Assembly (NCBI GenBank): GCA_963695545.1
Contig: OY968796.1
Location: forward strand, 3,140,753 to 3,164,752
DNA length: 24,000 nucleotides
Direction: 5' to 3'
Origin: Terriglobia bacterium
Lineage (GTDB): Bacteria > Acidobacteriota > Terriglobia > Acidiferrales > UBA7541
Part shown: piece after piece, positions 1,238-22,701 of the stretch
Position numbering within the stretch: the first letter of the stretch is position 1
How the letters are laid out: each line of letters starts with the position of its first letter
Position numbers and translations under genes: made by a program
The notes under the pieces: model-generated
Told to the model about the DNA's origin: nothing
The model's database searches: none
The model's input: the letters and a program-made list of their open reading frames with translations, nothing else

Positions 1238-1290
1238 GGCAAACCCGAGGCTGTGATGGCGTTATCGGCGACGGAGGCTCTGTGAGACCG

Positions 1291-2168: not shown

Positions 2169-2174
2169 TATAAT
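2169..2174 (+). promoter_or_regulatory. Possible -10 box (TATAAT) for the 2196..2981 gene
   Basis: A perfect TATAAT lies 22 nt upstream of the ATG, followed by the purine-rich GGGAAAGGG as an RBS. No convincing -35 element was seen. Confidence 0.3.
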
Positions 2175-2195
2175 GGTGGTTGGGAAAGGGCAGGT

Positions 2196-2981: not shown

Positions 2982-3309
2982 CTTTAATCCGCGCCTCCCG
3001 TGCCCAATTTGGTGTACGAGAACGTCAGCCCTGCCTGCCGGAACCTGCGTTGTGGTAGTTAGTAACCCCCAAGTGCCCTAAGTTTGTCCTACCGAAGGGC
3101 GGCTGACCTTTCACGTTTAGCATTAATAGCAGGAGACACCTTCTGCTACCCCAGAAACGCACCCCTGAGTGGCGGCGTCAGCATTTGCTGACCGCCGAGG
3201 ACTTCGCGAGGACGCTGTCGGACTCGGAGTTGTTGGAACGGTGCATGTGCCCGCAGGCGCGATCATGCCCGAGCAATTCTGTCCACTCGCGAAAATAAGA
3301 GGAAGAAAA

Positions 3310-4009
3310 ATGAAGAAATCTGACAAGCAACGCATCCGCGAAACGGCTCTGGCAATGGACAAGCCGTTCACCGTGCAGACCCTCAAGGGCCGTCTTGCCC
3401 GACCTTGTGTTCACATCGGCTGCGCCGAAAGGCAGGGAATGGCGTCGCGTGCTGGACGAGATGATGGCGGAAGGTGTTCTAGTCGTCCACAGTCAGGGTG
3501 CGAGCATCCCAGCGGGTGGAAATGAAAGCGACGACAAGCAGAGGCAGTATGTCGTCTCCACGGCGGCAACGGCACAGGCACGAGCCGAGACACCGACTGT
3601 ATTGGAATCTGTTCGGGCAGAGGTGGACGCAGGCGAGTATGAAGGGCTGTCGCTCAATGATGACGCGGTTGACCGAATCTACCACGGGCAGCGCAATGGC
3701 AAGGTACGCGCCGAGAAAGGCGACATCTGGGATATGGCAAGGCATGTGATCGCGACCCGCAGCGGTCGCAAATTGCCCGACATCCTGCCGGATGTGCTCT
3801 CTGTCCTGCGCAAGCGTCTGCCCGGCGATTCGTTCGTGGTCGCGGACTTGGCGCACGAGTTGCGCACTGGCGTAGACGGACGCCTCGGACGCACCTGCGA
3901 GAAGCTTTACAAGCAGGGCGTGCTCGACCGCAAGAGGGATGAGGGGGAGAGTGGACGTTGGCGTTACACAATTAAAGCCGACCTTTGGCAAAAGTCGGTG
4001 CTCGCTTAG
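3310..4009 (+). pseudogene. Double winged-helix (MarR/Rep-like wHTH) DNA-binding protein with one frameshift near 3390-3400
   Basis: ATG 3310 is preceded by AAGAGGAAG. MKKSDKQRIRETALAMDKPFTVQTLKGRL (frame of ORF 3169..3525) continues in the frame of ORF 3395..4009 as PDLVFTSAAPKGREWRRVLDEMMAEGVLVV. The C-terminal part FVVADLAHELR...CEKLYKQGVLDRKRDEGESGRWRYTI looks like a wHTH wing. Confidence 0.5.
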
Positions 4010-4056
4010 ATTTCCTGTTTTTCACGTTGCTCTCTTTAACCCACCCCCCAAGGAGT

Positions 4057-4725
4057 TCACCATTTTCTTACGCGTTCGCGATAACGCCGAATGACACGCT
4101 TGCTCACTTTGCCTTCGGCATCCTCGATTAGCTCTCGCATGGAATGTTGCGCTGCAAAGCATCCATAGATTGCGTGCCTGCCCGAACTCTCGTCGATAAT
4201 TCTGTGCAGTTGCTTAGCAGAGAACGGGCGAAACCCCAGCAGCCCCCGCGCTGCAATCGGGACTTCGGTCTTGAAATCGTTCGCTGCCAAGAACGCCTGA
4301 ATCGCACCATCGCGGGCGATGGCCCCGAATTCCTCATTCTTGCCCGATGCACGCAGCTACATCCCAAGCAGAGGCGTACGACGATTCTTCGTTCCATTTC
4401 AACGCTTGAATGTGGTCGATGAAGCCGTGAGGATTCTCATCGCGGTGGATTTTGACCGGAATTATCGCTTTTCCGAGGGCGAGTGCAAACCCGGTTTCTT
4501 GGTCTGTCCAGTCTGATTCAGAGAAGGCCTTGGTAAGCAGCGGGATGAAAATGTCGCACTCGCGCAGAGCCTTTCTAATCTCGGTGCGCCAGCCGGGCAG
4601 ACGGGACGGATGTCTTCGTGGGCCAGAAACGCGTCGAAGCCAAACTCTTCAAGACCCGCCTTCAGTCCTCCGGCGAGCTTTTTCGCCTTATGCGAGTAGC
4701 TTAGAAAAATGTTTAGAGGTTCCAT
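4057..4725 (-). pseudogene. TIR-domain protein with an unknown ~90-aa C-terminal domain; 2 frameshifts
   Basis: Translation of the reverse strand gives three segments. The first is MEPLNIFLSYSHKAKKLAGGLKAGLEEFGFDAFLAHEDIRP. After a frameshift near 4590-4605 comes WRTEIRKALRECDIFIPLLTKAFSESDWTDQETGFALALGKAIIPVKIH...ACIG. After a frameshift near 4340-4350 comes NEEFGAIARDGAIQAFLAANDFKTEVPIAARG...RRYRERVRKW*. IFLSYSH, CDIFIPLLT and S-x-W-x-x-Q-E are classic TIR_2 blocks. Confidence 0.75.
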
Positions 4726-4726
4726 G

Positions 4727-5314
4727 TCATTTCTCGGGCTCCGCAGGTAAGACCGCGTTCTGCGCCGAACGTACGGCTTTCACATAAATCACGCCATCTG
4801 CGCCGTTCGGTAATTTCCCTTGATAGGAGTGCGGAACCGTGACCAAGAACGCCTGACTACGAGGAGTTACAGCCGTCTTGTGACTGGCTTCAATGATCCT
4901 GAAAAGCCCCTCGCAGTATCCTCCGAGATGGTTGCAGTACGCTTCTAGTTTCATGTTCAGTTCCCGTTCCTGCACCGCCTTTTGTATCTCCACTTCGTCG
5001 AGCGGAGCACGTTGTTCAGGGGTCTTGGCATCCAACGGCGGAAAAACACGGGCAATGAATGCGTCAGTGGAACCGTCGTGCAGCGTGACAATCACCCCGG
5101 CAAACTGGTGGGACAAATTTCGATACTCCTGAATCTCGTTGACAGTCGGGTCGTCGTCGAGGGCCTTGACGAGTTCGTCGTGCCGCCCTTTCGTCACAAT
5201 ACCTTCCTGCTTGCACCGTCTGTATGCCGTGCACAGCAATTCAGCAAGATGGCGAAGCTGCCAGAGAACGCCTGCGAAATGCGCACGGAACACAGTCGCG
5301 TCCTCCTGAAGCAT
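4727..5314 (-). CDS. Unknown protein X (195 aa as an intact ORF), translationally coupled to the TIR gene; probably longer ancestrally, starting ~5595-5620 with a frameshift near 5315-5325
   Basis: Stop TGA 4727-4729 is 1 nt from the TIR ATG 4723-4725 (AAA TGA C ATG GAA). Protein-like sequence continues upstream in another frame (QDFDGMVAEVWHTLNVCLYHAAYVRVYADTGAM, ORF 5194..5595). No motif was recognised. Confidence 0.5.
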   Translation of the reverse strand: MLQEDATVFRAHFAGVLWQLRHLAELLCTAYRRCKQEGIVTKGRHDELVKALDDDPTVNEIQEYRNLSHQFAGVIVTLHDGSTDAFIARVFPPLDAKTPEQRAPLDEVEIQKAVQERELNMKLEAYCNHLGGYCEGLFRIIEASHKTAVTPRSQAFLVTVPHSYQGKLPNGADGVIYVKAVRSAQNAVLPAEPEK

Positions 5315-5616
5315 CTCACGTTAGCCTGCGAGAACGGTTGAGTCGCTGTGTGTGCGCGCTTGCTCCCAGCCAAGCACATCGCACCCGTGTCCGCATAAAC
5401 CCTCACGTACGCTGCGTGATAAAGGCAGACATTCAGCGTGTGCCAGACCTCGGCGACCATGCCGTCGAAGTCTTGATTGGGAGTGAACGTACCCTGTCCA
5501 TGTTTTGCGCTTCCTCGCCTCAAACAACGGCTCGAACGACGCTTTGGAATCACCTGCTCGCTCACAAAGGTGCTTCGAGCGGGGGCGTAAATCATCGCGG
5601 AGCGATTCGCCGGGCT

Positions 5617-7157
5617 TCAAGCTAATGGAGCGGAGGAGGAACGCCGTCGCAACTGGATCGAGATCGACAGCTTGAACGCGATCTTCAGTTGACTGCGCTC
5701 GTTCGGATACGGCAGCACTTCCCACTTGAGTGCGGCTCGTAGAATCCGTTTCGTCCGCCCGTCGCCATAAAATCCAACTGACGCTTTCCGGCTATCGTCC
5801 TTAAAGAAATCACAGCCTTCCGAGGTTAGCAGTTGTTTTTGTTGGGCACTACTACGCTGTACCTCAGTTTTCCGAAGCGGCGATCACGGGTCAGAAGATG
5901 AACGTTTCGGGCGTCGAAGACCCTGCCATCCGGCCGCCGGAATTTTTCCGTGGGGTTCGTGAAGCCGCAAAATGACCCATTCTAACGACTGGTAAACAAT
6001 TCCGAGTTCATTTCCCTTTGGATCGGCATAGGCGACGAAAATGTTGTACCCCCCCTTTCTCATCTCTCGGCTTGCAGGCTGATCAATAAGGTAGCCGCTG
6101 AACCCGTGTGGGTTCTACCATCCGTAGAACGCCTGATTGGGTCAGCCCAACGCAGAGTGCAGCCGCGTGTGAGCGGATTACCTTCTGTGCATGCTCGGAG
6201 CCGCAGACAGACGCCTTGACCTTCGTACCAGCCGTACTGCCAAAACAAACGCAGCCTGCAATGTATTGCCGAAGGACAAACCGTAAGCAAATTCGGAACT
6301 GCCGAGCGGACTCGCCAGCCATTCAAAGGCGACAACCAAATTGCGTGCCTCAGCAAGGGAAATCTCCTTGACGGTCGCGTTTTTGAAATCAGAGGCTAAT
6401 GCCATTTTTTCGGCAAGGAGCGGATCGGGTTGTTCTGCCATACGTTCGCGGTTCACGCGCTGGAAGGCTTTGCCATTTGCTGGATAATCCTCAAAGTCTT
6501 TGGAAATTTGTTTCTCGCACTCCCCAGCGTGCTTCGCCAAGTTCCTCAAAGCAAGAGTCAGCTTCTTGGTGATCGTCGGGCTGAGCCGACTGCGAAGCTG
6601 GGTTACTTTTTCCAGCTTCTCCCTACGGCTGGCCGATTCGAGGTCGCGAATCAACTCTGACGCAACGAGATTCACGTCCGGCTCCGAAATTACGCCAGTC
6701 GGCGTGACGATCTCTCTGATCTCGCGAAGCAAGCCGCTGTAGTCAGTTCTCCGTTTTTCTCTCGCGCCTGAACGAGAGCCTTTTCAAACGTAGCATCATC
6801 AACGAGGCGCGCGATTCTCTGCCACTTCGCGCTCTGATCCTTCGATATACCGATTTCCTCTAGTGTGGGCGGATTGGCGGTCGGTCTGCTCGACCGCCTT
6901 TTGACTCCATCCTTACGCGGTCGTCCTTCACCCCTTGTGCCGGGGTTCTTTTCCATTTCAAGCAAGAGTTGTCCTGTCCTGCGCTCGGCACGAATTCTTA
7001 TCTCCGCTGCCTGATTCTGGAGTTCAAAGTCGCCCGCCTGCTTGGCGTAAACGCGAACGGCTTCCGCTTTGTCACGGATCGCCTTCACCTCATCGACACG
7101 GTGGGCGGCGGCGAGCGCACGTCGGGCGGCGTCGTAACGAATGAGCGCGACAGTCAT
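5617..7157 (-). pseudogene. Fusion of a helical N-terminal domain (RYDAARRAL...ELTTAA type, common in phage/plasmid proteins) with a GNAT-fold Mom-like acyltransferase-like domain; at least 5 frameshifts
   Basis: Frame-hopping translation gives, in order: MTVALIRYDAARRALAAAHRVDEVKAIRDKAEAVRVYAKQAGDFELQNQAAEIRIRAERRTGQLLLEM...GISKDQSAKWQRIARL...GELTTAA; LLREIREIV...KEISLAEARNLVVAFEWLASPLGSSEFAYGLSFGNTLQAA; CFGSTAGTKVKASVCGSEHAQKVI; PLTRGCTLRWADP; NPHGFSGYLIDQPASREMRKGGYNIFVAYADPKGNELGIVYQS; NGSFCGFTNPTEKFRRPDGRVFDAR; then ...LKWEVLPYPNERSQ with stop at 5617-5619. The 'AYAD..G..G.IYQ' and 'RG....WA' blocks match my memory of Mom-family proteins. This was not verified by a search. Confidence 0.5.
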
Positions 7158-7160
7158 ATT

Positions 7161-7174
7161 CAGAGAATTCTCTG
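7161..7174. promoter_or_regulatory. Perfect 14-bp palindrome CAGAGAATTCTCTG in the divergent intergenic region
   Basis: It sits 4 nt upstream of ATG 7155-7157 of the minus-strand gene and 55 nt upstream of the SIR2 ATG (7229). It is a candidate operator for a dimeric regulator. Confidence 0.3.
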
Positions 7175-7228
7175 GCAGCAAAGGACAACGTCAAGCTACG
7201 AGAGCCGTGAAGTGGTATCTTTTTCGGC

Positions 7229-8265
7229 ATGACATCGGACAGGCGCACGGTTTTCGTAGTGGGAGCGGGTTTCTCCGCTGATCTTGAATACCCGCTTACT
7301 TCTCAACTGCTGCCCCGAGTCAGAAATCGTTTCGACAAAGCGTTTTCGACGCAGTTTGACGAGGTGGTCAGATTTCATCACCCCGGATGGGACAGGCGAC
7401 GGGCTACGCTTCCCGACATCGAACAACTGTTGACGGAATTGTCTGCAAACGAAGAGTTGCTGCCTGCGGTTCGTTCGGACTCCCGTTCGATAGCGTTACT
7501 CTCGAACGGTTTCGGGAGGAATTGCTGCGCCTCGTTGCCGTTTGGTTCCACGAAATCCATCAGAAACGCTCTTCGGCGGGCGACAGATCATTGGATCGCT
7601 TTCTGAAGCTTATAGGCGAATCAGAGAATCCAGTGGTGATCTCTTTCAACTGGGATTACGAGTTGGACGAAGCGTTGTTCGGCAAGAATGGCAAATCCCC
7701 AGACCTAACCCGCGAAAGTTACGGGCTAAACACGGGAAAGCTCGCGAGTCCCGCGTTGCTGAAACCACACGGATCACTGAATTGGTATCCCTCTCGTTCC
7801 GGCAAGCACATACAACGTGACTTGCGATTACGGCTGTGGAGATCATCTGGGTCGGAGCCGTCCATGTACTGTTTCATGCGATGGCGGGCGGTACGCTCGA
7901 CGCAGGGACGGCGATATGTACCGTGGATTGTTCCACCGACACACTGGAAACGATTCGACCATTCGATGATGAAACACATTTGGAAGCGGTGTGTGGATAC
8001 TCTGAGCACCGCTCGTCGAGTGTATTTTCTGGGTTACTCGCTGCCGCTTGCGGATTGGCATTCCAGATACATTTTTCGCTGTGGGTTCCATAATCAAATT
8101 GAAGGACTACCGCTGGCGGGTGGAGGGCGTGCGAAGCCAACCCGATTGGCAAAGGTCACGGTGGTGAACCCGGATAGCGTCGCCGTTCAGAGGATAGAAA
8201 CGACGTGTGGAGTGAAAGCCCGCTGGATCGACGACACGATCAGATCATGGCTACGATCCCGTTGA
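7229..8265 (+). pseudogene. SIR2_2-family (defence-type sirtuin-like NADase) protein, ~345 aa, with one frameshift near 7470-7480
   Basis: VFVVGAGFSADLEYPLTSQL gives the Rossmann NAD-binding start. After the frame switch (ELLPAVRS -> GLPFDSVTLERFREELL) come PVVISFNWDYELDEAL (N/D motif), LLKPHGSLNW (catalytic His motif) and RVYFLGYSLPLADWH. No second domain such as SLOG, HerA partner or TM segment is present. Confidence 0.75.
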
Positions 8266-8586
8266 TTGAGCGTATTTCGAGCACGATGTGTCATCGGTTT
8301 TTGCTTGTCCCTGCCCTGCGGCTGCGTCCGACCTCGATCTGCTCGCGTTTATTTAACCTATCTTCCAGCGTCACCGTAAGCTGCTGATGTCAAAGGGCGA
8401 ATTTCGCCGATTTTGACAGCCCAAATTTCATCCGTTAGATGAACATTACGGGAGCCGGGCGATGAAACCGTTTTCGGCTGAGAATAATCTTCATCTCTCT
8501 ACTGCTTCGCTCGCTGGAAACTGACCTGACCGGGGTTTTTTGTACCAGCGGGAGTGAGAGAGAATTCACTCTGGAGGGAAGCTGGT

Positions 8587-8865
8587 ATGCCGATGAGGAG
8601 ATACAAGCCGGAGCAGATCGTCACGCTGCTGCGGCAAGTTGAAGTTGAAATCGCCAACGGAAAGAGCACCCCACAAGCCTGCAAGGAAGCCGAGATCACC
8701 GCGCAGACCTACTACCGCTGGCGGAAGGAATACGGCGGCCTGAAGTTGGATCAAGCGAAACGCCTCAAAGAGTTGGAGCGGGAAAACGCCAAGCTGAAAC
8801 GGTTGGTGGCGGAGCTTTCGTTGGAGAAGCAAATTCTGAAGGATGTGGCAGAGGGAAACTTCTAA
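8587..8865 (+). CDS. IS3-family transposase OrfA (HTH + leucine zipper)
   Basis: MPMRRYKPEQIVTLLRQVEVEIANGKSTPQACKEAEITAQTYYRWRKEYGGLKLDQAKRLKELERENAKLKRLVAELSLEKQILKDV. The RBS GGAGGGAAG lies upstream of ATG 8587. Confidence 0.9.
   Translation: MPMRRYKPEQIVTLLRQVEVEIANGKSTPQACKEAEITAQTYYRWRKEYGGLKLDQAKRLKELERENAKLKRLVAELSLEKQILKDVAEGNF
8853..8859 (+). other. Candidate programmed -1 ribosomal frameshift heptamer G GGA AAC
   Basis: In the orfA zero frame the codons are GAG GGA AAC TTC TAA, which fits the X XXY YYZ pattern. After a -1 slip the reading is GKLLSPERRRSAVEHARESYQVSERHACRLLGQ, joining orfB without a stop. The orfB frame is open well upstream of 8853. Confidence 0.6.
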
Positions 8866-8888
8866 GCCCTGAGCGGCGACGTAGCGCG

Positions 8889-9731
8889 GTGGAGCATGCA
8901 CGCGAGAGCTACCAAGTATCAGAGCGGCATGCCTGCCGGTTGCTGGGGCAGTGGAGAGGGACACAACGCTACGAGGTGATCCACCGAACGGATGAAGACG
9001 CGCTGACGCGAGACATCGTGGCGCTGGCCAGCGAGTACGGGCGCTTCGGCTATCGGAGGATCACGGCGCTGTTGCAAGCACGGGGCTGGTATGTGGGCAA
9101 GGATCGGGTGCAGCGGATCTGGCGGCGCGAAGGGCTGAAAGTGCCGCAGGGACAAAGGCCGCGAGGAAGGCTGTGGTTGAACGACGGATCGTGTGTTCGT
9201 CTCCGGCCGGAACGAGCCAACCATGTGTGGAGCTACGATTTCGTGAGCGCGATGACCCACGACGGCCGAACACTGCGAATGCTGACGCTGATCGACGAAT
9301 ACACGCGGGAGTGCCTGGCGATCCGCGTGGCGAGAAGGCTGGGGAGATACGAAGTGATCGAAGCGCTGGCGGACGTGATGCTTTACCGGGGAATTCCGGA
9401 ACATATTCGCTCGGACAACGGCCCGGAGTTCGTGGCCAAGGAGCTGAGGAGTTGGCTGGCGAAGGTGGGAACGGGGACGCTGTACATCGAACCGGGAAGC
9501 CCTTGGGAGAATGGCTACTGCGAAAGCTTCAACGGGAAATTGCGCGATGAATGTTTGAACGGAGAGATTTTTTACTCGCTGAAGGAAGCGCAGATCGTGA
9601 TCGAGAAATGGCGGATGGTGTACAACACGCTGCGTCCGCACTCAGCGCTGGGCTACAGGCCACCGGCGCCGGTGGCCTGTAGCCCCTTGGTGCCGCCAAT
9701 TCTCGGTTCGCCGTCGACGGCTGTGATGTAG
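8889..9731 (+). CDS. IS3-family transposase OrfB (rve/DDE integrase core), normally made as an OrfAB fusion
   Basis: HVWSYDFV...LTLIDEYTRECLAI...IRSDNGPEFVAKELRSWL...IEPGSPWENGYCESFNGKLRDECL...YNTLRPHSALGYRPPAP. The track start at 8889 is GTG. The true N-terminus probably comes from frameshifting at 8853-8859. Confidence 0.9.
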   Translation: MEHARESYQVSERHACRLLGQWRGTQRYEVIHRTDEDALTRDIVALASEYGRFGYRRITALLQARGWYVGKDRVQRIWRREGLKVPQGQRPRGRLWLNDGSCVRLRPERANHVWSYDFVSAMTHDGRTLRMLTLIDEYTRECLAIRVARRLGRYEVIEALADVMLYRGIPEHIRSDNGPEFVAKELRSWLAKVGTGTLYIEPGSPWENGYCESFNGKLRDECLNGEIFYSLKEAQIVIEKWRMVYNTLRPHSALGYRPPAPVACSPLVPPILGSPSTAVM

Positions 9732-9771
9732 ACTCTCTCATTCACCGTGGTACAAAAACTCGGGCTGGTCA

Positions 9772-11584
9772 AGAGCCACGGCGGGTTGCCGATGATGAAG
9801 TCGAATTGTTGCTTCAGCATCGCGGGTCTGTAGCTGTTGCGGATGATGAACGACCAGATGGTGTTCTTCTCCTGTCGGATCAAGTCCGCCAACTTTTCGG
9901 TGAAAGACCAAAGCGCGTCAACAATCGCTGCATGCTCAAGCAGTTTGTACAATTCGGGAACATTGACCGTCAGATACTTGTTTAGTGTCGTTCTGCTTTC
10001 CTTCTTCGATTTTGCGTGCGCCTCGGCGACCGTCGCGCAGGCGGCAATCGCGTCGTCAAAAAGCTCCGGTGAGTGGATAAGCCAGTCCGGCATCGCGACC
10101 GTCTTTTCATTCTTCTCGCCGAACTGAATTTCGAAACCGCTCAACTTCTCGTACAGATTCTGCTCGACTTCGCGCGGAAGGAACAGCGAGTCCGCCAGAT
10201 ACACGGGGATGTTGACGGGCTTGCGTGCGGCGTTCACGAGCTTGCCGAGCGCGAGAACGTATGTGGCGCGGGAGATAGTAACCGCGACGGGGTGGATGTC
10301 GATGCCCTGAACCTTGCCGAGTATCATTCGCAGCTTGTCGTTGTCAGTGCCATCGGGATTGTGGTTCAGGAAGTGGTGGATCGTGGCACGCAGGAAGCTG
10401 CCCGAGCCGCAGCTTGGATCGAGCACCGCTTTGTAGCCGTGCTTCGGTAAAAGCTCGTCCACGATGCGTTCGCACAGCCAGTCGGGCGTGTAATACTCGC
10501 CAAGGTCGTGACGATCCTTGGGGTCGATCAACTGCTGGTAGACGCCCTTGAGCACGTCCTCCTTGATGTGAGACAGGTCATAGTCCGCGAGGTGTGAGAG
10601 GATGCGCTCCCACATCGGGGCGAGAATCTTCTCGGCTTCCACGCTGCGAATCCAGTGAAAGAAGTCATCATCCACGAGGTTCGCGAGCCGCTTGGACTCG
10701 AAGTAGCGACCCGAGAGCACATCCTTCGCGACCTGCCTCAGGTTCGCGGTGCTCTTGCCCTGCGACAGGGCAGCCCAAATCAGCAGCCGGGCGATGCTCG
10801 CGAGATAGGTGTGCCGCAGGAACAGGTTCTCAAGCTCGGAGATTTCCTGCGCGGTCTCTATGTCCCGCACCGCCGTGGTGTCCTCGGTCAGGCGACCGTA
10901 GGTGACGGTGAGGTACCGCTGCCACGTCTCGAACGCGAGCTTGGCTTCCGATCCGCCGCTGACCTTTGCCCACGCACGCTTGAGCGCAGCCATGCCCTCG
11001 TGGAACTGGAAGCTCTGGCTGCCGAACTCAAGCTGGAACTGCTCGGCGGTCGCCTCTACCTGCTGCTCACGAAACAGCAAACTCGTGAGCCACAGCCAAA
11101 ACTCGCCCAGCGTCTCATCTGCCAGCTTGAAGTCGCTTAGTTCGTCCAGCACGACGTTCTCAGGCGTCGGCTCCTTCCCCTCGGGAAGCACGGGGCGGTA
11201 GCGAATCCAACGGCTGCCGTCCGTCGCTATCGCCAGCAGTGGACGCAGCGCGTTTCTCTTTTCCTTCTGCCAAGTCCCGGCGACGTACTCGCAAAGCTGA
11301 CCCTTCGCCTCTTCGAGCGTGGCGGACAGAGACTTCTCAAACTCGATGATGGCGTTGCCGTAGTAGGCGTCGGCGCGTCCTCTCTTCTGTCCCACCGCTT
11401 GGTCGATGCGGATCAGTTTCTCGACCCCACGGGAGAACTCGGAGACGGCGTTCGTGCCGGGGAAAAGCTCTGCGATTACGGCGGCGAAGCGCGACCGCTT
11501 GGCGGCTTCGTTGGGGAGTGTCTTGACCTCGCGGGCGTAGGCCCGCAACGTCTCCTTGACCTTTGGCTCAAGCGTCTCAGGCAT
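9772..11584 (-). pseudogene. Gamma-class N6-adenine DNA methyltransferase of a single-chain RM type (N-terminal nuclease-like motif + helical spacer + MTase), 3'-truncated by the IS3 insertion right after motif IV
   Basis: MTase motifs are GEYYTPDWLCERIV, VLDPSCGSGSFL (motif I), VQGIDIHPVAV and FIIGNPPW (motif IV). The N-terminal GRADAYYGNAIIEFEKSL resembles the D...E-x-(E)K nuclease motif of MmeI-like type IIG/IIL enzymes. The last 39 aa of the 657-aa ORF (LTSPSFCTTVNERVY...) are read-through into IRR. The likely start is ATG 11582-11584 (MPETLEPKV), with 11626 as an alternative. Confidence 0.8.
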
Positions 11585-11669
11585 TGGCGTGAATGATAGC
11601 AGCGAGGGCAAAGAAAAGGGGTGCATCTTGCGATGCTCTTACGGCATCAGCAACTTTTCTTGTTCCGCT

Positions 11670-13140
11670 TTAGCTGGAGGCGAGTCGAAGTTTTTCTAAC
11701 AGCTTTAGAAGAGCTAGCGTATCCAGAGCACAATAGTCGAGCAGAGCTTTCTGAATTCTCTCGCGCTCGCCGCCATCAAAGCAGCCGCGCAAGAGCGCCT
11801 CCCACGCCAGTCCGGCTTCCTGCCCGTTCGCAACCGTCATCCCGTCGTAGCTCATCTCAGGCACGAGAGCGGGCAGCACGGACTTGAGGCTGTACGATCC
11901 GGCGAACGCGGGGTGGTAAACATGTGCCCGCACGATGGGCAGTAGATCGAACAGGCGGTCTTGGATTGTTTTGATCTGATCCGCGAACCGAGGAAACCAA
12001 GTCGCGAGTTCCGAAAGACGCTTAGATTCGAACGACGAATACACGACGATGCTGCCGCTTTCGCCGAGTGCAGCGCAGAGGGAGCTAATGAACTCGCGCC
12101 GAGGATCGCTGCTACCTGCGGCAAGAAACTCGTAGTGCTCTGGCTCTGCGCCCGCTTGTCGCTGCACATGGACTGACCATTGAAAGGGCAGGTGGTCGTA
12201 GGGTCGCATTCCCGCGAACGGCGGAATCGCCCGATTCAGAGTCTCGAAATCGGCGAAGTACAACGGGTAGGTCAACCCGTCCAACAGATCGCGGAGTCCA
12301 TCGCTGAACCACGGTCGTCCCGTCTGCACGCACGTCGCAGCACGGCGTTGAATGTCGCTCAACTGGAAATCGTGAGGGATGTCCCGAATTGACTCGACGC
12401 CAATCTCCTCAAGCGCATCGACCGCGCTGGCGTGGATGCGCGGCAAAAATCCGATGTGATCCTGCGAGCGCGGCGGGTTGCAGTGATCGAAAAATTCGCA
12501 AGTGACGGGGGCGGTACAGTGCGCACCAATTTTGATGTTGGGAGGAGTCGGCTGCTCCAGAATCCGAAATTCCGACCGTAGCTGCAACGTCAGCTTGTGC
12601 TGCAACCCCTCGACTCGCCGGGCCACATTGCGGATGCGAAAGAATTCTCGCGGGTCGATTTCACCGCCCGGATAAACATAGTTTCGGTTGATGTGAGCCA
12701 GAGATGCCGAAGCCATGTCCAGCCCTGACCGCGAAACCACGCGATACTGGATCGCTACGTCTTCGAGGTGGTGATCCTTGAGATCGGTCGTTGACTTGAC
12801 TTCAATCAATTTCCAGCGACCGTCGAGCCGTCGCTGTAGGACGTCCACTTTCACGAGCACGTTCTTGTGCTCAAACACCCCCTCGAAAATCGCTGGCACG
12901 TCCGGGTTTGCCACCAGTTCGCGAGTTGCGCGGATCGCTTTGTCCAGCCTGCCGTCACTCGGAACCTCGACCCCGCCCGGAAAAAGCTGCCGGGCAAGCA
13001 AGACCGACCTGCCGCCCCTGTTCGATGATGGCTTGATCAGCAGCGTCCGGCGCGACTGCCAGTTCTGGTTCGTGGACGAGCAGATACAAACGTTTGGCGC
13101 ACTGGCGGCCAGCAATAACTTTTGTTTTGCTGATTCTCAT
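11670..13140 (-). pseudogene. DUF2779-family protein (N-terminal Cas4-like PD-(D/E)xK nuclease with a Cys cluster + C-terminal DEDD-like exonuclease fold); one frameshift near 13010-13030
   Basis: MRISKTKVIAGRQCAKRLYLL...IIEQGRQVG (ORF 12955..13146) continues in another frame as LARQLFPGGVEV. Further motifs are VKVDVLQRRLDGRWKLIEVKSTT (D...E-V-K), AHCTAPVTCEFFDHC (Cys cluster), YPLYFADFETLNRAIPPFAGMRPYDHLPFQWSVH and GSYSLKSVLPALVP. Confidence 0.8.
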
Positions 13141-13173
13141 GTTCAAGGCTTCGAGCAGCGGCGTCGGACTGAA

Positions 13174-13515
13174 TTATGCATCCGCCCGATACGGCTTCCT
13201 ATCGTCGATCAGATGAAGCTTGTACTTGTGAAATTGCGCGATGCTTGCCGGGGAACGGTCGCGCCCGCAGAAGATGTCCTTGAGTCGCGAGTCCGCGCAA
13301 GCGAGCCGCTCAAGAGCACGCCACCACAGGATACCGGGTCGCCCGGAGTCGGTCGCACCGTCCGGGCGCGAGTGGAGGAGCCGGAACTCCCTTTCGGAAT
13401 TGACAAAGTCCCTGACGGCGTTCTCCACTTCCTCCGGGCTGGGGTTGACGAACTTGACCTCGATCTCTCCATCCGGCTTGACGCTCGTCTCGATGATTTC
13501 GTCGAACATCTCCAC
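13174..13515 (-). CDS. Small hypothetical protein P2 (113 aa), N-terminal paralogue of P1
   Basis: GTG 13515 or ATG 13509 is preceded by GAGGAGGAG. The N-terminus FDEIIETSVKPDGEIEVKFV matches LDEQIETKIAPDGTVTVRLI of the upstream gene. The rest is unique. Confidence 0.5.
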   Translation of the reverse strand: MEMFDEIIETSVKPDGEIEVKFVNPSPEEVENAVRDFVNSEREFRLLHSRPDGATDSGRPGILWWRALERLACADSRLKDIFCGRDRSPASIAQFHKYKLHLIDDRKPYRADA

Positions 13516-13541
13516 GTCACTCCTCCTCGCAGCGTCGCCCG

Positions 13542-13871
13542 CTAAGCCTGCGCCTTGACCCTGTGCATATAGAGCAGGAGCGAGCGGAACCGTTCGTATG
13601 CTTCCGCCCGCATCTCCTTATCAGCCCACCCCTCGAAGAACATCTGCTTGAGTTTCCCCTCGGCGGCAACCGACCTGTCCTTCGCTGTCTCGTCCGCGTA
13701 TGTGCACGAGAAGTACTCGTTGGCGGCGAACTCGACCATGGTCTGCGCGAGGTCGATGTCGCGGATCATCTGCTCGTCGCCGATCAGCCTCACGGTTACC
13801 GTGCCGTCAGGGGCAATCTTCGTCTCGATCTGCTCGTCGAGCGTCGTCGCGACCTGCTTGTCGTCCGCCAT
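13542..13871 (-). CDS. Small hypothetical protein P1 (109 aa)
   Basis: ATG 13869-13871 is preceded by GGGAGAAAGAGAAGAG. It is an acidic protein with no recognised family. A 26-nt gap separates it from P2. Confidence 0.55.
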   Translation of the reverse strand: MADDKQVATTLDEQIETKIAPDGTVTVRLIGDEQMIRDIDLAQTMVEFAANEYFSCTYADETAKDRSVAAEGKLKQMFFEGWADKEMRAEAYERFRSLLLYMHRVKAQA

Positions 13872-13913
13872 CTCTTCTCTTTCTCCCTATCGAATTGAGG
13901 TTCCGCTTCCTTC

Positions 13914-14451
13914 CTATACGGTGGCGTACATGTTCCGGCGAATCCAGCGGCTCAGCAGCACCAGCAGCACCGGGGCAAATACGAAGAACGGAGCGATGGC
14001 GAACACCAACGCCGCACTCTCGGGGTTGAGACTGCTGAGGCGTTCGGGAAACACCTTACCGAGTCCAATCGCGAAAATAACTTCGGCGGCGACGGAGCCG
14101 ATGAAACCGCTGACCATGAACCAAATCGACTTGGCGAGCGTCTGCCACATACCGCCGTGGTCTTGACGCCAAGTGCTCAGCTTTCCCGCTCGCTGCCACT
14201 GCCGGACGCTGTGCCAATGGCAGATGAAGACCATCCAGATCGCGCAGGCAAGCGGTCCCGGTAAGGAAGTAGAGCACGCCCCAAATCCGCATATCGGCAC
14301 CGCTCAACGCGAGAGCCTCGATGCCGACTGTAAAAAGAAGAGGAGCCGATAGTCCAAACATGAGCAGGGTGAGTAGGAACAGGATTTCCGACAGCACCCA
14401 TTTCAGGAATTCGCGGGCTGTTCCGGCGATGTCGATAACCATTGGCTCCAT
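13914..14451 (-). pseudogene. Four-TM membrane protein, unknown family; one frameshift near 14240-14265
   Basis: MEPMVIDIAGTAREFLKWVLSEILFLLTLLMFGLSAPLLFTVGIEALALSGADMRIWGVLYFLT switches frame to GPLACAIWMVFICHWHSV...IWFMVSGFIGSVAAEVIFAIGL...AALVFAIAPFFVFAPVLLVLLSRWIRR. Four hydrophobic spans are visible. Confidence 0.5.
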
Positions 14452-14505
14452 GGACGTTTCCTCCGGTACGAGACCCCTTCGCGATAGTTCTGGCGTCGGA
14501 AGATG

Positions 14506-15144
14506 TCAGGCGCATGCAGCCGTAGCGTGCTGAGAACGGGCAGCGGCGTACACAGTCCCAACTGACAGATTCATTTCGTTGGCTATCCACCGCCACGAAT
14601 GCCCGGAGGCTCGCAGTGAGTTGATCCGGTCAACATCGACAGCTTTTCTCGGTCGCCCGAGGCGTTTGCCCTTCGCCCTAGCATTTCGCAATCCTGCCCG
14701 CACGCGCTCAACTATCGTCTCTCGCTCGCTTTCCGCTACCGCTGCGAGAACGTGAAAGACAAATTTGCCTGATGGAATCGTCGTATCAATTTGCTCGATC
14801 ATTGCCACAAAATTGATCTTCAGCGCGTGAAAGGTCTCAAGTGCTCGGCACAGGTGTGAAACTGAGCGCGAAAAACGGTCGAACCGCCAGACGACGACCA
14901 CGTCGAATCTCCGCGCATGAGCATCCGCCATCAAGCGATTCAGTTCGGGTCGGGAATCCTTCCTGCCCGAGACGCCCTCGTCCACATAGCAGTCAAAAAT
15001 ATCCCAGCCCCGTCGCTGACAGTACTCGCGCAGTTCTCGTGTCTGCATCGCCGAGTCTTGCCCGTGACCTATCGTCGAAACCCGAGAATACACGGCAGCT
15101 TTGATCTTTTGCGGGCCGCAATCGCGAACAACCTGCAATCCCAT
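14506..15144 (-). CDS. Small serine recombinase (resolvase/invertase family) with a C-terminal HTH; intact
   Basis: AAVYSRVSTIGHGQDSAMQTRELREY (catalytic Ser block), VDEGVSGRKDSRPELNRLM, VVVWRFDRFSRS, GKFVFHVLAAVAESERETIVERVRAGL, GRPRK, and C-terminal SGHSWRWIANEMNLSVGTVY. Confidence 0.9.
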   Translation of the reverse strand: MGLQVVRDCGPQKIKAAVYSRVSTIGHGQDSAMQTRELREYCQRRGWDIFDCYVDEGVSGRKDSRPELNRLMADAHARRFDVVVVWRFDRFSRSVSHLCRALETFHALKINFVAMIEQIDTTIPSGKFVFHVLAAVAESERETIVERVRAGLRNARAKGKRLGRPRKAVDVDRINSLRASGHSWRWIANEMNLSVGTVYAAARSQHATAACA

Positions 15145-15311
15145 CAGGACTCCCTTCGTACCCCAAACTGTTTGCCAAACCCGTTCAAAAACCCTGCGCG
15201 GGGCGTTCCGGGCGACGCTCTACTCTCCCGTAGACCTGATCCCTTCTGGTGAGCGTAGAACCGCCCAGAACGCCCCGACGAAGGCTGCTCATTTGCTCTT
15301 GGAATCGTCCT

Positions 15312-15563
15312 TCATCGCCTGCCCGCCTTCTGCTGCTCGTGCGCCTTTCGCAACGTCTCATCGAAGCATGCTTCGCACATGCCGCCAGTCTCGCCGCCGT
15401 CGCCTTGCGTAAATCGGTGAGCACAGGAAGGGCACCTGAACTCGATTCCGGTCGGAGGTTGACCTTGACCGTTGGGATGGAGCGGGACAGCCTCCGTTCC
15501 GCACCGAACGCACTTCTCGCCGAGAACTTGCTGGCACTGCACACAGATGCGAGTCACGCGCAT
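15312..15563 (-). CDS. Small zinc-ribbon protein (83 aa, four CxxC pairs); a possible longer form starts at GTG 15728
   Basis: MRVTRICVQCQQVLGEKCVRCG...FRCPSCAHRF...GMCEACFDE. Start-site choice is uncertain and no strong RBS is present. Confidence 0.4.
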   Translation of the reverse strand: MRVTRICVQCQQVLGEKCVRCGTEAVPLHPNGQGQPPTGIEFRCPSCAHRFTQGDGGETGGMCEACFDETLRKAHEQQKAGRR

Positions 15564-15705
15564 CCCCGAATGGTGCCGAAGAACCGGGTGGGACTTGCGA
15601 TTGCTGGCGAGGTTCCGAATGAAAACAGGGGCGTGAATGCGAGCGGACAGACGACTGTTACAATTCGAGCAGCCATTGCAGCCTCCAGTTAGGTTGCTGT
15701 GGTCA

Positions 15706-15739
15706 GGGACGACCCGGTGTATCAGCACCGGGTCGTCCC
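15706..15739. other. Perfect 14-bp stem hairpin/palindrome GGGACGACCCGGTG-tatcag-CACCGGGTCGTCCC
   Basis: It lies 2 nt downstream of the RHH gene stop (15742-15744) on the minus strand. No U-run follows on the minus strand; a T-rich stretch (CTTATTTCAATTCTTT) follows on the plus strand. It could be a terminator/attenuator or a protein-binding site. Confidence 0.5.
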
Positions 15740-15741
15740 GC

Positions 15742-15885
15742 TTATTTCAATTCTTTGGCTCTTTCCTGAAGGTACTTATCAATCGCACGCCGGATCAGTT
15801 CGGCAAGCGGAGCACCCGTCTTATCGGATAGCTTTTGCAGCTTCTCAATCTGCTCTTCTTTAAGGAAGAGGGCCGTACGCTTCAT
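15742..15885 (-). CDS. Ribbon-helix-helix (CopG/Arc/MetJ-type) DNA-binding protein, 47 aa (not in the ORF track, which starts at 60 aa)
   Basis: The reverse-strand translation is MKRTALFLKEEQIEKLQKLSDKTGAPLAELIRRAIDKYLQERAKELK*. It shows an N-terminal beta-strand followed by two helices, typical of RHH. An in-frame alternative ATG is at 15889-15891. Confidence 0.65.
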   Translation of the reverse strand: MKRTALFLKEEQIEKLQKLSDKTGAPLAELIRRAIDKYLQERAKELK

Positions 15886-15925
15886 AGGCATACATATTAC
15901 CATACAGATGCATACATGTCCATAG
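15883..15925 (-). promoter_or_regulatory. Candidate RHH promoter/operator: five (C/G)TATG repeats and an extended -10-like TGGTAATAT
   Basis: The minus-strand reading is CCTATGgacatGTATGcatctGTATGgtaatatGTATGcCTATG. Plus-strand repeat starts are 15883, 15889, 15901, 15911 and 15921, giving 10-12 bp spacing for three of them. TGGTAATAT lies just upstream of the ATG, which implies a very short or absent leader. Confidence 0.35.
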
Positions 15926-16270
15926 GCCGGAAGTACTGGCGTACTTTGAGGTGCGAAAGATTGGGTTTTGGAACATCTTTGGAACAGCTAGGATGATAGG
16001 AAACGAGGGGGTTCATTGCGGCTTAGCGCAGCCTTTGCACCATCCACTTCCGGGAGCAGCGGTCAGAAGGGCGAACCCGCGAGGGCAGTTCTTGCTTTGG
16101 GGTGGACTTTCCGGAATTCTTCAGTATGGGTCGGAGCACCGTCTTCGAACGTGATAGTTGGCAGAACTCCTATGAAGAGCGCAACTTACCAACAACTTGT
16201 ACCTAAACGGCAAAACTAGCGCGTTCAGTGCGTTGCAAGCCCCCGCAACCAATTCGATGCTTCACGCGAA

Positions 16271-16441: not shown

Positions 16442-17260
16442 TCAGGCTTTCTTCGCCTTCCCGGGAGGAACGAGCGCGACCGAGGCCTCGGTGGTGAGCA
16501 GCAGGAATGTGAACGTCTCCTGCAGATACAGGCGCACAGCGGTGTCGGTGTGGCTGAGATAGCCGATCGAGACGTCCTGTCCGATGTGCAGGTCGAAATC
16601 TCCGCCGCGCGTGGTCAGCACGAAAGCGCCGCTGATCGCGGGCGCCCAGATGATGGCATCCTTCACGAGCCGCTTAACATGCTCGAGTACGGGATATCCG
16701 TGGTCGCTGGTTTCGGCGAGCGCCGTGTACGCGTCCGCGCCGAGCAACACCGAGTACGGGCCATTGACGCCCACCAGACGAAGTTGGCTCAGGCCTTGCG
16801 CAATCGCGTCCGGGTATTCCAGTACGTTTGCGGGGAGCGTCATGATCGGATTGCTGGTGCCTTGACGAATGCCGCCGATACCCGCGGCGGTGTAGCGATC
16901 GAAAATCGCGCAGTCTTCGGCGAAGGCGATTTTCTGCGCGGCGTCCTTCGCGGGTTGCCAATTCGCGTCGTTCGCGCCGCGCTCAACATCGTCAACGTCT
17001 TTGCGCTCCAGCTCGAAGGGAACACGCAGCTCGACCAGCGCCTTAACCTCGCGTTGTCTTGCAAGGACGCCGTCCGCTGGTGGCGTGATCGTCTTCAGGT
17101 GGCCCGTGCCCACGCCGGAGAGACCTGTGCCCGCCGCGGGGTGCACGTCGACGACGCGGCGACCGGCGATGTAACGCTTGAACGTGCGCGAAGTTTCCTC
17201 TTCGATTTGCGCCCACGCGGGGTCGGAAATGGGAGCGAGTTCGCGATGCAGGTTATTCAT
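16442..17260 (-). CDS. Family 1 encapsulin nanocompartment shell protein (HK97 fold, linocin M18-like), 272 aa
   Basis: MNNLHRELAPISDPAWAQIEEETSRTFKRYIAGRRVVDV...GPYSVLLGADAYTAL...ISGAFVLTTRGGDFDLHIGQDVSIGYLSH. The track ORF's N-terminal 35 aa overlap the DyP gene and are rejected. Confidence 0.92.
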   Translation of the reverse strand: MNNLHRELAPISDPAWAQIEEETSRTFKRYIAGRRVVDVHPAAGTGLSGVGTGHLKTITPPADGVLARQREVKALVELRVPFELERKDVDDVERGANDANWQPAKDAAQKIAFAEDCAIFDRYTAAGIGGIRQGTSNPIMTLPANVLEYPDAIAQGLSQLRLVGVNGPYSVLLGADAYTALAETSDHGYPVLEHVKRLVKDAIIWAPAISGAFVLTTRGGDFDLHIGQDVSIGYLSHTDTAVRLYLQETFTFLLLTTEASVALVPPGKAKKA

Positions 17261-18347
17261 CTTGGCTTTCTCCTTTGAGAGAACCGATGTCGAGCGAACC
17301 ATCGTTGCTCGGCGAAGTTGTTGGCGCGGTTTCGTCCGCTGACGGTTCGGCGGAAGGCGCCGCATCGGCAGCCCCGTCGTCGCTCACGTCGTCAAGAAAT
17401 GTCGCGGACGGCACGAAGAAAAGATTTCCGGTGACCGCGCGGCTGAAGTCGAGCAGCCGGTCGTAGTTGCCCGGCGGGCGGCCGACGAACATATTCTCGA
17501 GCATTAGTTCGATCGTGCGGGCCGAACGACTGTAGCCGATAAAATAAGTCCCGAATTCAGCTTCGGTGGGCCGGCCAAAGGGCATGTTGTCGCGCAGAAT
17601 TTGGAGTTGTTTGCCGTTCTCGAAGATGATGTTGAGCGAGCTGTGCGAGTTGCTCGGCTTGACGGATGCGTCGAGCTCGATATCGGAAAGTTTGTGGCGA
17701 CCGATGATCCGCTCCTGCGCTTCGACGGGAAGCGCATCCCATCCGGCCATATCATGCAGATATTTCTGCACGATCACGTAGCTGCCGCCGGAGAACGCGG
17801 CGTCCTCTGCGCCGATCAGCACGGAGTCAACCGCTTCCTGGCCCCGCGGATTCTCCGTGCCGTCGACGAATCCGATGAGATCGCGATCGTCGAAATAACG
17901 GAAGCCGTGCACTTCGTCCGCGGGCGTAACCGAATCGCCGATGCGCGCCATAATCTGCGTCGCGAGCTCGAAGCACAAATCCATGCGCTTCGCGCGAATG
18001 TGAAACAGCAGATCGCCCGGCGTGGATACCGCGTGGCGGTCACCGGATCGAATCTCGCGGAATGGATGAAGCTCTGCCGGTCGCGGCGAACCAAACAAGC
18101 AGTCCCACGCCTCCGATCCGACGCCCATGATGCAGGAAAGGCCGGCTTCGAGATCGCGCATCTCCACGGCGCGAACCACCGCGGCGAGGTCCGCGGAGAA
18201 CGAGCGCAGCGCGGAGCGACTCTCGGAGCCCGGCTTTATGGTCACCACCAGGAAAATTGCCGCACGGGTGAGCGGCGCGGAAACCGGCTGCGCGAGAGCG
18301 CTCAAACCGGCTGCGGCGTTCTGTGTGCTCTTCGGATCGGGCTCCAT
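17253..18347 (-). CDS. Dye-decolorizing (DyP-type) peroxidase cargo with a C-terminal encapsulin targeting peptide
   Basis: HGFRYFDDRDLIGFVDGTENP (the GxxDG DyP motif), ...MPFGRPTEAEFGTYFIGYS. A flexible Ala/Pro/Ser linker precedes the C-terminal SLDIGSLKG targeting motif. The stop overlaps the encapsulin start by 8 nt (ATGAATAA). Confidence 0.92.
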   Translation of the reverse strand: MEPDPKSTQNAAAGLSALAQPVSAPLTRAAIFLVVTIKPGSESRSALRSFSADLAAVVRAVEMRDLEAGLSCIMGVGSEAWDCLFGSPRPAELHPFREIRSGDRHAVSTPGDLLFHIRAKRMDLCFELATQIMARIGDSVTPADEVHGFRYFDDRDLIGFVDGTENPRGQEAVDSVLIGAEDAAFSGGSYVIVQKYLHDMAGWDALPVEAQERIIGRHKLSDIELDASVKPSNSHSSLNIIFENGKQLQILRDNMPFGRPTEAEFGTYFIGYSRSARTIELMLENMFVGRPPGNYDRLLDFSRAVTGNLFFVPSATFLDDVSDDGAADAAPSAEPSADETAPTTSPSNDGSLDIGSLKGESQDE

Positions 18348-22372: not shown

Positions 22373-22684
22373 CTAGCCGCCGGCGATCGCGCCGATGATC
22401 AGAAAAGGCTCTTCCCCGGAGGCGACTCGATCGGGCAGCGGCGCGTCCGGCGATTCGTGAGAAAGATCTTCCTGGCACGCAAAGAAGCGCAGGAATGGGC
22501 GGCGCTGTTGCGTGACGTGATCGCGAATGGTTCCTTGCAATAGCGGATAGCACGCTTCAAGCGCGTCAAGTACGGAGCGCTGCGTCGGCGTGCCTACGAC
22601 CTCGATCGAAACCTCGCTGCCCACATGCGCGAGCGTCCTGAGATGCGCGGGGAGAACTACGTGAATTGTTTGCTTCGCTTGCAT
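22373..22684 (-). CDS. MoaD/ThiS-family ubiquitin-like small protein ending in Gly-Gly (103 aa)
   Basis: [19 protein letters not shown]...[13 protein letters not shown]. The start is 17 nt downstream of the BNR gene stop. The upstream part of the 180-aa track ORF overlaps the BNR gene and is rejected. Confidence 0.75.
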
Positions 22685-22701
22685 TGCTAACGGCACCGGC
22701 G

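Follow-up and report, generated by a model that had tools for sequence, protein, structure and literature searches.

Islands placed at tRNA genes by tyrosine integrases are the described elements closest to the locus considered here, and as comparison types we take pipolins, known as "bimodular platforms" (PMC11551731), and the integrase-linked hotspots of E. coli (PMC10121019). Recombinase-associated defense loci (RADS; Andersen et al. 2026, PMC13552941), a concept developed on Bacillota and Bacteroidota, are built around small serine recombinases, which are reported to be general markers of defense loci and dispensable for defense itself. Published analyses of the DUF2779 family find a Cas4-like nuclease joined to a DEDD exonuclease, without an assigned function (PMC13621843, PMC3985635). 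Here we consider a 24,000-nucleotide stretch of DNA from a Terriglobia bacterium (Acidobacteriota; contig OY968796.1), hereafter the window, in which eight genes run in one direction on the minus strand at 9772–15903: a ribbon-helix-helix (RHH) protein, a Zn-ribbon protein, a serine recombinase, a membrane protein, two small proteins (P1 and P2), a DUF2779 protein, and a restriction–modification (R-M)-like methyltransferase (MTase). To our knowledge, the defense biology of Acidobacteria, a soil phylum, has seen almost no experimental study. We judge it fairly probable that this train is not one restriction system but three stacked layers of a genomic island, in which seven genes would form the conserved arm of a mobile island in soil Acidobacteria and the eighth would be swappable, stand-alone R-M cargo. 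The observations that carry this view are a conserved upstream and a variable downstream side of DUF2779, a defense-rich cargo, genomic contexts that differ, divergent copies within single genomes, and one relative, L028, in which an island is seen from end to end.

The loci compared come from a scan of one genome per species (~100 hits in 185,579 species genomes, the search being limited by its pattern); 80 genome loci were compared, and 83 locus records were used for tblastn. In the 80 loci, every cluster of open reading frames (ORFs) present in at least 10 loci lies within ~5 kb upstream of DUF2779 and none lies downstream, where no cluster is common to more than seven loci. The widely shared upstream clusters are the recombinase, a 342-residue Zn-ribbon/coiled-coil protein, the membrane protein, and several small proteins, and DUF2779 is the final gene of the conserved arm. 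Searches near DUF2779 with the window's own proteins recovered the recombinase in 50 of the 83 records (2–4 kb upstream of DUF2779 in about that number), the membrane protein in 21, RHH in 7, P2 in 6, and the Zn-ribbon protein and the methyltransferase in 4 each. The order RHH, small ORFs, Resolvase, small ORFs, DUF2779 is kept in the gene-called loci L001, L003, and L084. The recombinase and DUF2779 halves show incongruent similarities, the window's recombinase being nearest to that of L028 and its DUF2779 nearest to those of L084 and L003, which indicates that the arm is mosaic. Where the DUF2779 protein is more distant (~25 loci), none of its neighbors is conserved.

On the other side of DUF2779, the cargo is rich in type I, III, and IIG R-M, DISARM-like, BREX, and TIR genes. 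In L001, DUF2779 is followed by a C5 MTase, RelA_SpoT, GmrSD, HNH, and Vsr; L003 carries a type IIG enzyme of 1084 residues, SIR2_2, and an SMC-like ATPase; and L084 carries a DISARM-like helicase/MZB and an MTase of 1327 residues. Over 46 loci we tallied the two nearest ORFs downstream of DUF2779 that reach 180 residues (89 ORFs), and this census counted ResIII 12 times, N6_Mtase, N6_N4_Mtase, and Eco57I six times each, SNF2 five times, and C5 MTase four times, and also contained T1R, PLD, BrxL, AIPR, and SLFN. PADLOC called type IIG, type III MTase, DrmD, and DrmMI among the cargo. A matched control of 89 upstream ORFs held kinases, S-adenosylmethionine-MTases, and response regulators. Because the downstream side is defense-rich whereas the upstream side is ordinary chromosome, the DUF2779 stop codon is the border between a fixed arm and an exchangeable cargo. 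The small serine recombinase lies within a few kb of known defense genes, the arrangement by which RADS are recognized. No motif after the DUF2779 stop is common to the loci, a hairpin being present in a subset only, and the junctions beside the recurrent flank gene cl56 have nothing in common.

The arm itself sits in different surroundings in close relatives, next to encapsulin in the window and next to RNase H, a Crp-like gene, or CusF elsewhere. Six two-copy pairs from metagenome-assembled genomes (MAGs) have DUF2779 proteins that are 53–87% identical; both members carry recombinase and DUF2779 in four of them (L070/L072, L011/L019, L018/L052, and L006/L078), and in L045/L073 and L041/L053 the second copy is a DUF2779 gene only, without recombinase. 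In L028, an exact 21-bp direct repeat, ATGGCGGAGAGGGGGGGATTC, is found at 7468–7488 and 18128–18148, 10.7 kb apart. One copy lies 260 nucleotides upstream of RHH and the other is the 3′ end of tRNA-Ser(gct), beside which a Phage_integrase protein is encoded (16922–18022); the cargo includes a TIR protein. L028 is thus one whole island, which has its integrase next to the tRNA and, at the opposite end, the module from RHH to DUF2779. A tyrosine integrase and tRNA-Asn stand at the far end of L081, a tyrosine integrase is located 7.7 kb downstream in L025, and L027 has tRNA-Met at its far end.

Other traces of tRNA sequence were seen around the module. The L028 21-mer is also present in a different genome, at 1780–1800 of L001, where ankyrin-repeat and RNase H genes separate it from RHH, 4.1 kb downstream; this spacing indicates that the arm is not always at the extreme end of the island. 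Just upstream of RHH in two further loci are the 5′ halves of tRNA-Ala(TGC) (L050, ~6730–6768) and tRNA-Asn(GTT) (L084, 5838–5870), cut in the anticodon loop. ARAGORN called no tRNA at either half, and they may be relics of earlier integrations. In the window, a 12-nucleotide copy of a tRNA-Met 3′ end, including the CCA, is present on the minus strand at 16240–16251. It has the encapsulin terminator on one side and the island arm on the other, and shares place and orientation with the attL of L028. It is a possible, weak candidate for an attachment (att) remnant. If the island model holds for the window, we propose that the partner tRNA beyond the left edge would have a 3′ end reading ...CCCCCGCAACCA. 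Integration would probably occur through a tyrosine integrase at a tRNA gene, as seen in one relative, L028.

Several points weigh against the island view. The window contains no island end, integrase, or tRNA gene, the far (left) end of the island was not found in it and probably lies outside, and the tRNA-like remnant of 12 nucleotides at 16240 is weak. A tyrosine integrase was found in three of the ~50 module loci (L028, L081, and L025) within the 10 kb fetched, so to generalize from L028 is to extrapolate. Neither an empty site nor an excision junction was seen. In some loci the flanking genes are shared on both sides (c44/c46 upstream, cl56 downstream), and a hotspot that is inherited vertically while its cargo turns over would fit this as well. 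Of all genes in the module DUF2779 is the best conserved, which is unusual for a mere passenger, and the functions given to the recombinase and the DUF2779 cassette are putative. The flank of the island carries genes for encapsulin and a DyP-type peroxidase, an encapsulin cargo pair, at 16442–18347. The pair is ~80% identical in 80 metagenome loci, none of which has genes of window positions 1–16000 beside it, a result that we count as a sign of mobility. As the other neighbors of the encapsulin-DyP pair differ too, these loci provide no true empty site and no boundary can be read from them. No near-identical window DNA was found on plasmids.

We picture the layers as follows. The first, for regulation and DNA rearrangement, would consist of RHH, a hairpin, a small ORF, the Zn-ribbon protein, and the small serine recombinase. 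The second would be a tightly packed cassette of the membrane protein, P1/P2, and the DUF2779 dual nuclease, with DUF2779 always last. Together, these two would make up the fixed arm of an island family in Terriglobia. The third would be the exchangeable cargo immediately past the DUF2779 stop, its first gene here being an MmeI-like type IIG gene broken by an IS3 element. RHH would regulate the arm from the promoter near the end, the serine recombinase, as an accessory, may resolve excised circles or multimers or promote the swapping of modules, and the DUF2779 cassette would serve the island and may process DNA ends in island or cargo transactions or attack incoming DNA.

The description of the train in an earlier, sequence-only reading of the window was mostly correct. 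The ORF list of the window places all eight ORFs on the minus strand, the gaps of 178 (or 13), 167, 54, 42, 26, 33, and 43/85 nucleotides are reproduced exactly from the ORF coordinates, and Pfam upholds the domain labels (RHH_3, Resolvase, DUF2779, and N6_Mtase/Eco57I). What that reading overlooked is that three of the eight genes, those for the membrane protein, DUF2779, and the type IIG enzyme, are broken. The Zn-ribbon ORF, the membrane ORFs, P1, and P2 have no family in Pfam, PADLOC, NCBIfam, or PHROGs. PADLOC returned no match for RHH, the Zn-ribbon protein, the membrane protein, P1, or P2, and gave only a weak Cas4 match for DUF2779 (E 8e-4).

At the regulatory end, conservation begins sharply at 15937, 52 nucleotides upstream of the RHH start at 15885, in an alignment of six related loci. 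Inside this conserved end of the arm is a promoter-like site on the minus strand (15894–15922, TGGACA-17-TAATAT with TG), and the motif is present once per related locus. The RHH gene (15742–15885, minus strand) encodes a CopG/Arc-like DNA-binding protein (Pfam RHH_3, 35 bits; PHROG label Arc-like repressor), and its probable start, ATG AAG, is kept in the six loci. Directly 3′ of its stop is a hairpin with a 14-bp stem (15706–15739), followed by a ribosome-binding site and the ATG of a small ORF. The hairpin is a perfect inverted repeat of 15 bp that is kept in six related loci; of the 14 pairs tested across loci, five show compensatory changes, and 88% are paired compared with 35–48% in slid controls. 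Possible roles for it are as an attenuator, a site of processing, or a site for protein binding. The small ORF, of 40 residues (15554–15676, minus strand), has a conserved GGAGG-N-ATGGCT start and is a putative gene. For the Zn-ribbon gene, an excess of third-codon-position changes is confined to 15312–15563, so the gene product is the short form of 83 residues with four CxxC pairs; a long form of 138 residues was not supported by the codon-position test.

The recombinase (14506–15144, minus strand) is a small serine recombinase of the resolvase/invertase type. Its 212 residues fall within the 180–220 expected of this class, it matches PF00239 over 144 of 145 positions (E 2e-45), and the N-terminal Ser motif (YxRVST) is present as VYSRVST. 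The C-terminal helix-turn-helix matches HTH_7 under the Pfam cut-off (E 5e-4). The nearest solved structures are Gin invertase and γδ resolvase, and the PHROG label is DNA invertase. Given this closeness to Gin and γδ, the enzyme is probably accessory, in line with the reported dispensability of such recombinases for defense (PMC13552941). The recombinase gene has no repeat pair on its flanks that could hold cognate res, hix, or att sites, and the end motif occurs once per locus. An invertible segment was considered and rejected, the gene order of the recombinase block in its two orientations not being a simple inversion.

The membrane protein belongs to a family with a median length of 179 residues. 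The label given to it by the sequence-only reading holds, but the span 14451→13914 is not one open frame. It measures 538 nucleotides, which is not a multiple of 3, and the N and C termini of homologues fall in different frames, so the gene (13914–14451, minus strand) is frameshifted near 14261. P1 (13542–13871) and P2 (13174–13515), both on the minus strand, had been called paralogues. The relationship is weak in identity (24%) but is upheld by a full-length alignment in which all eight invariant positions of the family are common to both, and we regard P1 as a distant P2 paralogue. P2 forms a very small family of 15 clusters, with P2-type genes frequently two per related locus. It is predicted to fold into a β-hairpin and three helices, and the model (predicted local distance difference test (pLDDT) of 80) has no significant fold match in the PDB or BFVD. 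The 342-residue protein, which has a CxxC at its N terminus, a coiled coil, and a domain at its C terminus, is found in 32 loci, ~1–2 kb upstream of DUF2779 (for example, at 7866–8894 of L018), and is missing from the window. The co-linear similarity of this protein (c7) to a DUF2130 protein is marginal (E 0.03–0.09).

The DUF2779 gene (11670–13140, minus strand) encodes a Cas4-like PD-(D/E)xK nuclease with four Cys and a DEDDy 3′–5′ exonuclease-like domain; it matches PF11074 with 142.7 bits (E 1e-41) against a curated cut-off of 23.3. The domain composition and Cys cluster that had been noted in the sequence are borne out by an alignment of 16 sequences, in which the Cas4-like D101/E115/K117, the cysteines C16, C210, C216, and C222, and the exonuclease residues D299/E301 (DFET motif) and Y471/D475 are all invariant, in agreement with the published description (PMC13621843). 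Relative to three relatives, the gene has a one-nucleotide insertion near 12999, GGTC[T]TGC; intact relatives have ~490 residues. There are more than 4,000 relatives, with identities of 70–83% in the best 120 clusters. Named sources among the matches are MAGs of Terriglobales or Candidatus Acidiferrales, and the closest relative is that of L084 (82%). An AlphaFold model built on 16 close homologues was of low quality (pLDDT 39.5), and a profile search of PDB sequences returned nothing.

Relatives of DUF2779 at 32–38% identity are present on 31 plasmids, and 50,697 phage records contain no match. The plasmid relatives adjoin Qat genes, Gabija-like OLD/UvrD genes, or a PLD and DEAD helicase pair, with a recurrent "ATP-binding protein" upstream and a WYL protein downstream; these plasmid-type partners (ATPase and WYL) are absent from the Terriglobia loci. 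These neighborhoods mildly support a place for DUF2779 in defense biology. On proteobacterial and campylobacterotal plasmids, a trio recurs (L170, L173, L174, and L169) in which an "ATP-binding protein" of ~700 residues is followed by DUF2779 and a WYL-domain protein, and this trio looks like a candidate system of its own. On the Aliarcobacter plasmid pACRY43158 (L172, 4946–8500), DUF2779 directly follows QatC and TatD (QatD-like) of a Qat system, and a large AAA protein and a dGTPase lie downstream of it. A phage origin of the module was rejected: the phage collection gave no match, and the sole "viral" contig with the module, L166 (IMG/VR, 32.7 kb), is the same DNA as L027 from a Terriglobales MAG. 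The viral label probably comes from another part of the contig.

The eighth gene (9772–11584, minus strand) is the 5′ 57% of an MmeI/Eco57I-like type IIG R-M gene, truncated after NPPWL. The motifs reported for it are present in the translation, namely the γ-class MTase motifs I (VLDPSCGSGSFL) and IV (GNPPW), with matches to Pfam N6_Mtase and Eco57I, and the D...EFEK stretch of a putative N-terminal nuclease domain. The PADLOC profile REase_MTase_IIG aligns from residue 29, residues 29–618 corresponding to 14–616 of 1100 model positions (E 4.5e-68). The start is probably at 11584, judging from the L003 orthologue, which was called from MPETLEPK. The uninterrupted copy that the sequence-only reading called for was found in L003, whose orthologue of 1084 residues aligns to the window's enzyme over residues 1–622 only; the L032 orthologue is likewise full length. 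By its layout, the intact enzyme appears to be a complete single-chain type IIG design and would be expected to function alone. The remaining ~460 C-terminal residues, including the target-recognition domain, are nowhere in the window, so this DNA has been lost, and with the target-recognition half removed by IS3 the enzyme cannot work here.

The IS3-family element occupies 8522–9771 on the plus strand (~1.25 kb) and has terminal inverted repeats (the ends at 8522 and 9771 read TGACC...), orfA (8554–8865, HTH_Tnp_1), and orfB (8889–9731, rve DDE), whose product is 73% identical to annotated IS3 transposases. No target-site duplication of 3–4 bp is present, the flanks reading AAC and AGA, which is consistent with a deletion associated with the insertion sequence. 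DNA to the left of the element (8291–8435) matches a different part of a related island (L004, 9526–9671). This match and the missing duplication suggest that the element marks a deletion or rearrangement rather than a simple insertion. A perfect 18 + 18-nucleotide palindrome (GGGCTACAGGCCACCGGC / GCCGGTGGCCTGTAGCCC) is located at 9650–9685, within the 3′ end of orfB.

How the frameshifts in the train should be read depends in part on other genes of the window. Split genes are also present at 3310–4009, 7229–8265, and 22373–23817. As overlapping ORFs these are a gene shared with L004 (3169–4009), a SIR2-like gene, and a BNR/sortilin-like gene, the last of which lies in the ordinary chromosomal flank. 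That a gene outside the island is split suggests an error-prone long-read assembly rather than decay specific to the island, and a related MAG locus has a frameshift of its own. With other split genes in the window, the one-nucleotide frameshifts may be assembly errors and not decay; both are compatible with the data. Two independent gene-breaking insertions of one nucleotide, at 3392–3398 and 12998–13004, share the context GTC[T]TGC. A systematic base-calling error at GTCTGC was considered and rejected: GTCTGC is not depleted elsewhere, and other GTCTTGC sites sit in intact genes, so the coincidence does not show a simple systematic error. Beyond the IS3 element, further island DNA extends over 3270–8521 and includes the split SIR2-like gene (7229–8265, plus strand), a TIR-like fragment (4462–4725, minus strand), and a gene (3310–4009, plus strand) with 93% DNA identity to L004. 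An intergenic inverted repeat at 1305–1419 has 36-nucleotide arms made of CAGAA/GGTCAGAA-like short repeats.

Could the cassette be a defense system in its own right? It always adjoins R-M or defense cargo, its genes are tightly packed or overlapping with DUF2779 last, and relatives of its DUF2779, absent from the 50,697 phage records, are carried by 31 plasmids, beside Qat, Gabija-like, and PLD/DEAD helicase genes with a recurring ATP-binding protein and WYL protein. Such a cassette, with the recombinase perhaps a linked marker, would be an undescribed anti-phage or anti-plasmid system clustered with other defense genes, in which DUF2779 degrades invading DNA and the small and membrane proteins act as sensor, inhibitor, or effector. 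Small serine recombinases mark defense loci (PMC13552941), and Upx, a dual nuclease in a single protein with proven defense, offers an analogy (PMC13099982). However, no PADLOC model matches beyond the weak Cas4 (E 8e-4), the fixed polarity at an island edge with ordinary genes on the other side is more like the architecture of an element, and the plasmid partners are absent from Terriglobia. A DUF2779 gene is also quasi-essential in a minimal Mycoplasma (PMC13621843), which argues for a housekeeping DNA role in at least one lineage. This explanation is compatible with the island picture, and we consider it unlikely, if a serious candidate. A little less probable still, in our estimate, is that the membrane protein–P1/P2–DUF2779 cassette and the recombinase form an undescribed unit, either a new nuclease defense or a "cargo-exchange platform" in which the Cas4-like/DEDD nuclease and the recombinase would swap defense cassettes at the DUF2779-stop junction. 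The DUF2779 cassette may be an undescribed defense or island-maintenance module, which we offer as a lead and not as a result.

The remaining explanations tie DUF2779 to its R-M neighbors or to the chromosome. As an ancillary nuclease aiding the adjacent R-M system, DUF2779 might finish restriction fragments or repair self-cuts, by analogy with Cas4-like fusions (UvrD-Cas4) linked to type III R-M, Dcm/Vsr, and WYL regulators (PMC5704561). The adjoining cargo is indeed mostly R-M of types I, III, and IIG and C5-MTase/Vsr, but it also includes TIR (L028), RelA_SpoT and GmrSD (L001), and BrxL, AIPR, and SLFN elsewhere; the plasmid relatives lie beside Qat, Gabija-like, and PLD/helicase genes rather than R-M, and the ~25 distant DUF2779 loci have no conserved neighbor of any kind, so that we find this role improbable. 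The sequence-only reading had paired DUF2779 with the methyltransferase, possibly with the membrane protein and P1/P2, as a two-gene restriction or defense variant, and had staked the idea on the adjacency being conserved in other genomes. The two genes are adjacent in the window (gap of 43/85 nucleotides), yet over ~80 loci the adjacency is not conserved. The four methyltransferase records reduce to three distinct places: in L003 (the same as L008) the gene adjoins DUF2779 on the same strand, in L032 an orthologue with 87% identity is on the opposite strand, and in L026 the match is an unrelated enzyme with 22% identity. Orthologues of the methyltransferase thus stand near DUF2779 in no more than two other loci, different genes lie downstream of the closest relative of DUF2779 (L084, 82%), and the enzyme has the full single-chain type IIG layout alone. 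The pairing is very improbable; the methyltransferase is ordinary cargo, and the specific hypothesis can be dropped. No more credible, in our view, is an ordinary chromosomal DNA-repair operon that lies beside a defense island by chance. The very high conservation of DUF2779 (60–83% identity across many Terriglobia) and the flanking genes shared by some loci are in its favor, but the pattern-limited search gave only ~100 hits in 185,579 species genomes, flanks differ among close relatives, some genomes have two divergent copies, and L028 has att repeats and an integrase. The fallback of the sequence-only reading, a mobile-element maintenance module, is a much better fit, with RHH, recombinase, membrane protein, P2-type, and DUF2779 genes recurring at the island end.

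On the three-layer reading, the conserved arm marks the edge of variable defense islands in Terriglobia, and it could serve as bait for new defense genes in the manner of recombinase-guided searches. DUF2779, a widespread family without an assigned role, gains a concrete context in which it can be tested.

Overall, the locus would represent a tRNA-type, recombinase-marked defense island with an undescribed conserved arm; we found no published description of an RHH-to-DUF2779 arm. Like tRNA-integrated tyrosine-integrase islands, it combines a module that is conserved and lies at one end with a variable block in which R-M and other defense genes abound, its insertion contexts differ, its structure is mosaic, and L028 has direct repeats taken from a tRNA 3′ end as well as an integrase next to that tRNA. 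The conserved arm, however, carries no family-B polymerase, relaxase, replication, or capsid gene, and consists instead of RHH, Zn-ribbon protein, serine recombinase, membrane protein, tiny orphan proteins, and DUF2779. With RADS it shares a small resolvase/invertase-type recombinase within a few kb of diverse defense genes, the role of which is possibly mobilization, but here the recombinase belongs to a fixed module of larger size, the DUF2779 cassette lies between recombinase and cargo, and the complete example, L028, also has a tyrosine integrase. The type IIG gene resembles MmeI/Eco57I-like enzymes in its putative N-terminal nuclease-like domain, its γ-class N6-adenine MTase motifs, and the single chain of ~1084 residues of its orthologues, whereas the copy in the window lacks the C-terminal ~460 residues with the target-recognition domain because of IS3. 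DUF2779, finally, shares with solo-Cas4 and Cas4-like fusions (PMC5704561) and with published members of PF11074, including MMSYN1_0389 (PMC13621843, PMC3985635), the D/E/K triad, the four Cys, the DEDD(y) domain, and a presence on mobile elements and near defense genes. The Terriglobia proteins differ from the Cas4-like fusions in having neither a fused helicase nor a CRISPR link. The Mycoplasma member, MMSYN1_0389, has lost two of the Cys and is quasi-essential, whereas the Terriglobia clade is accessory and island-borne.

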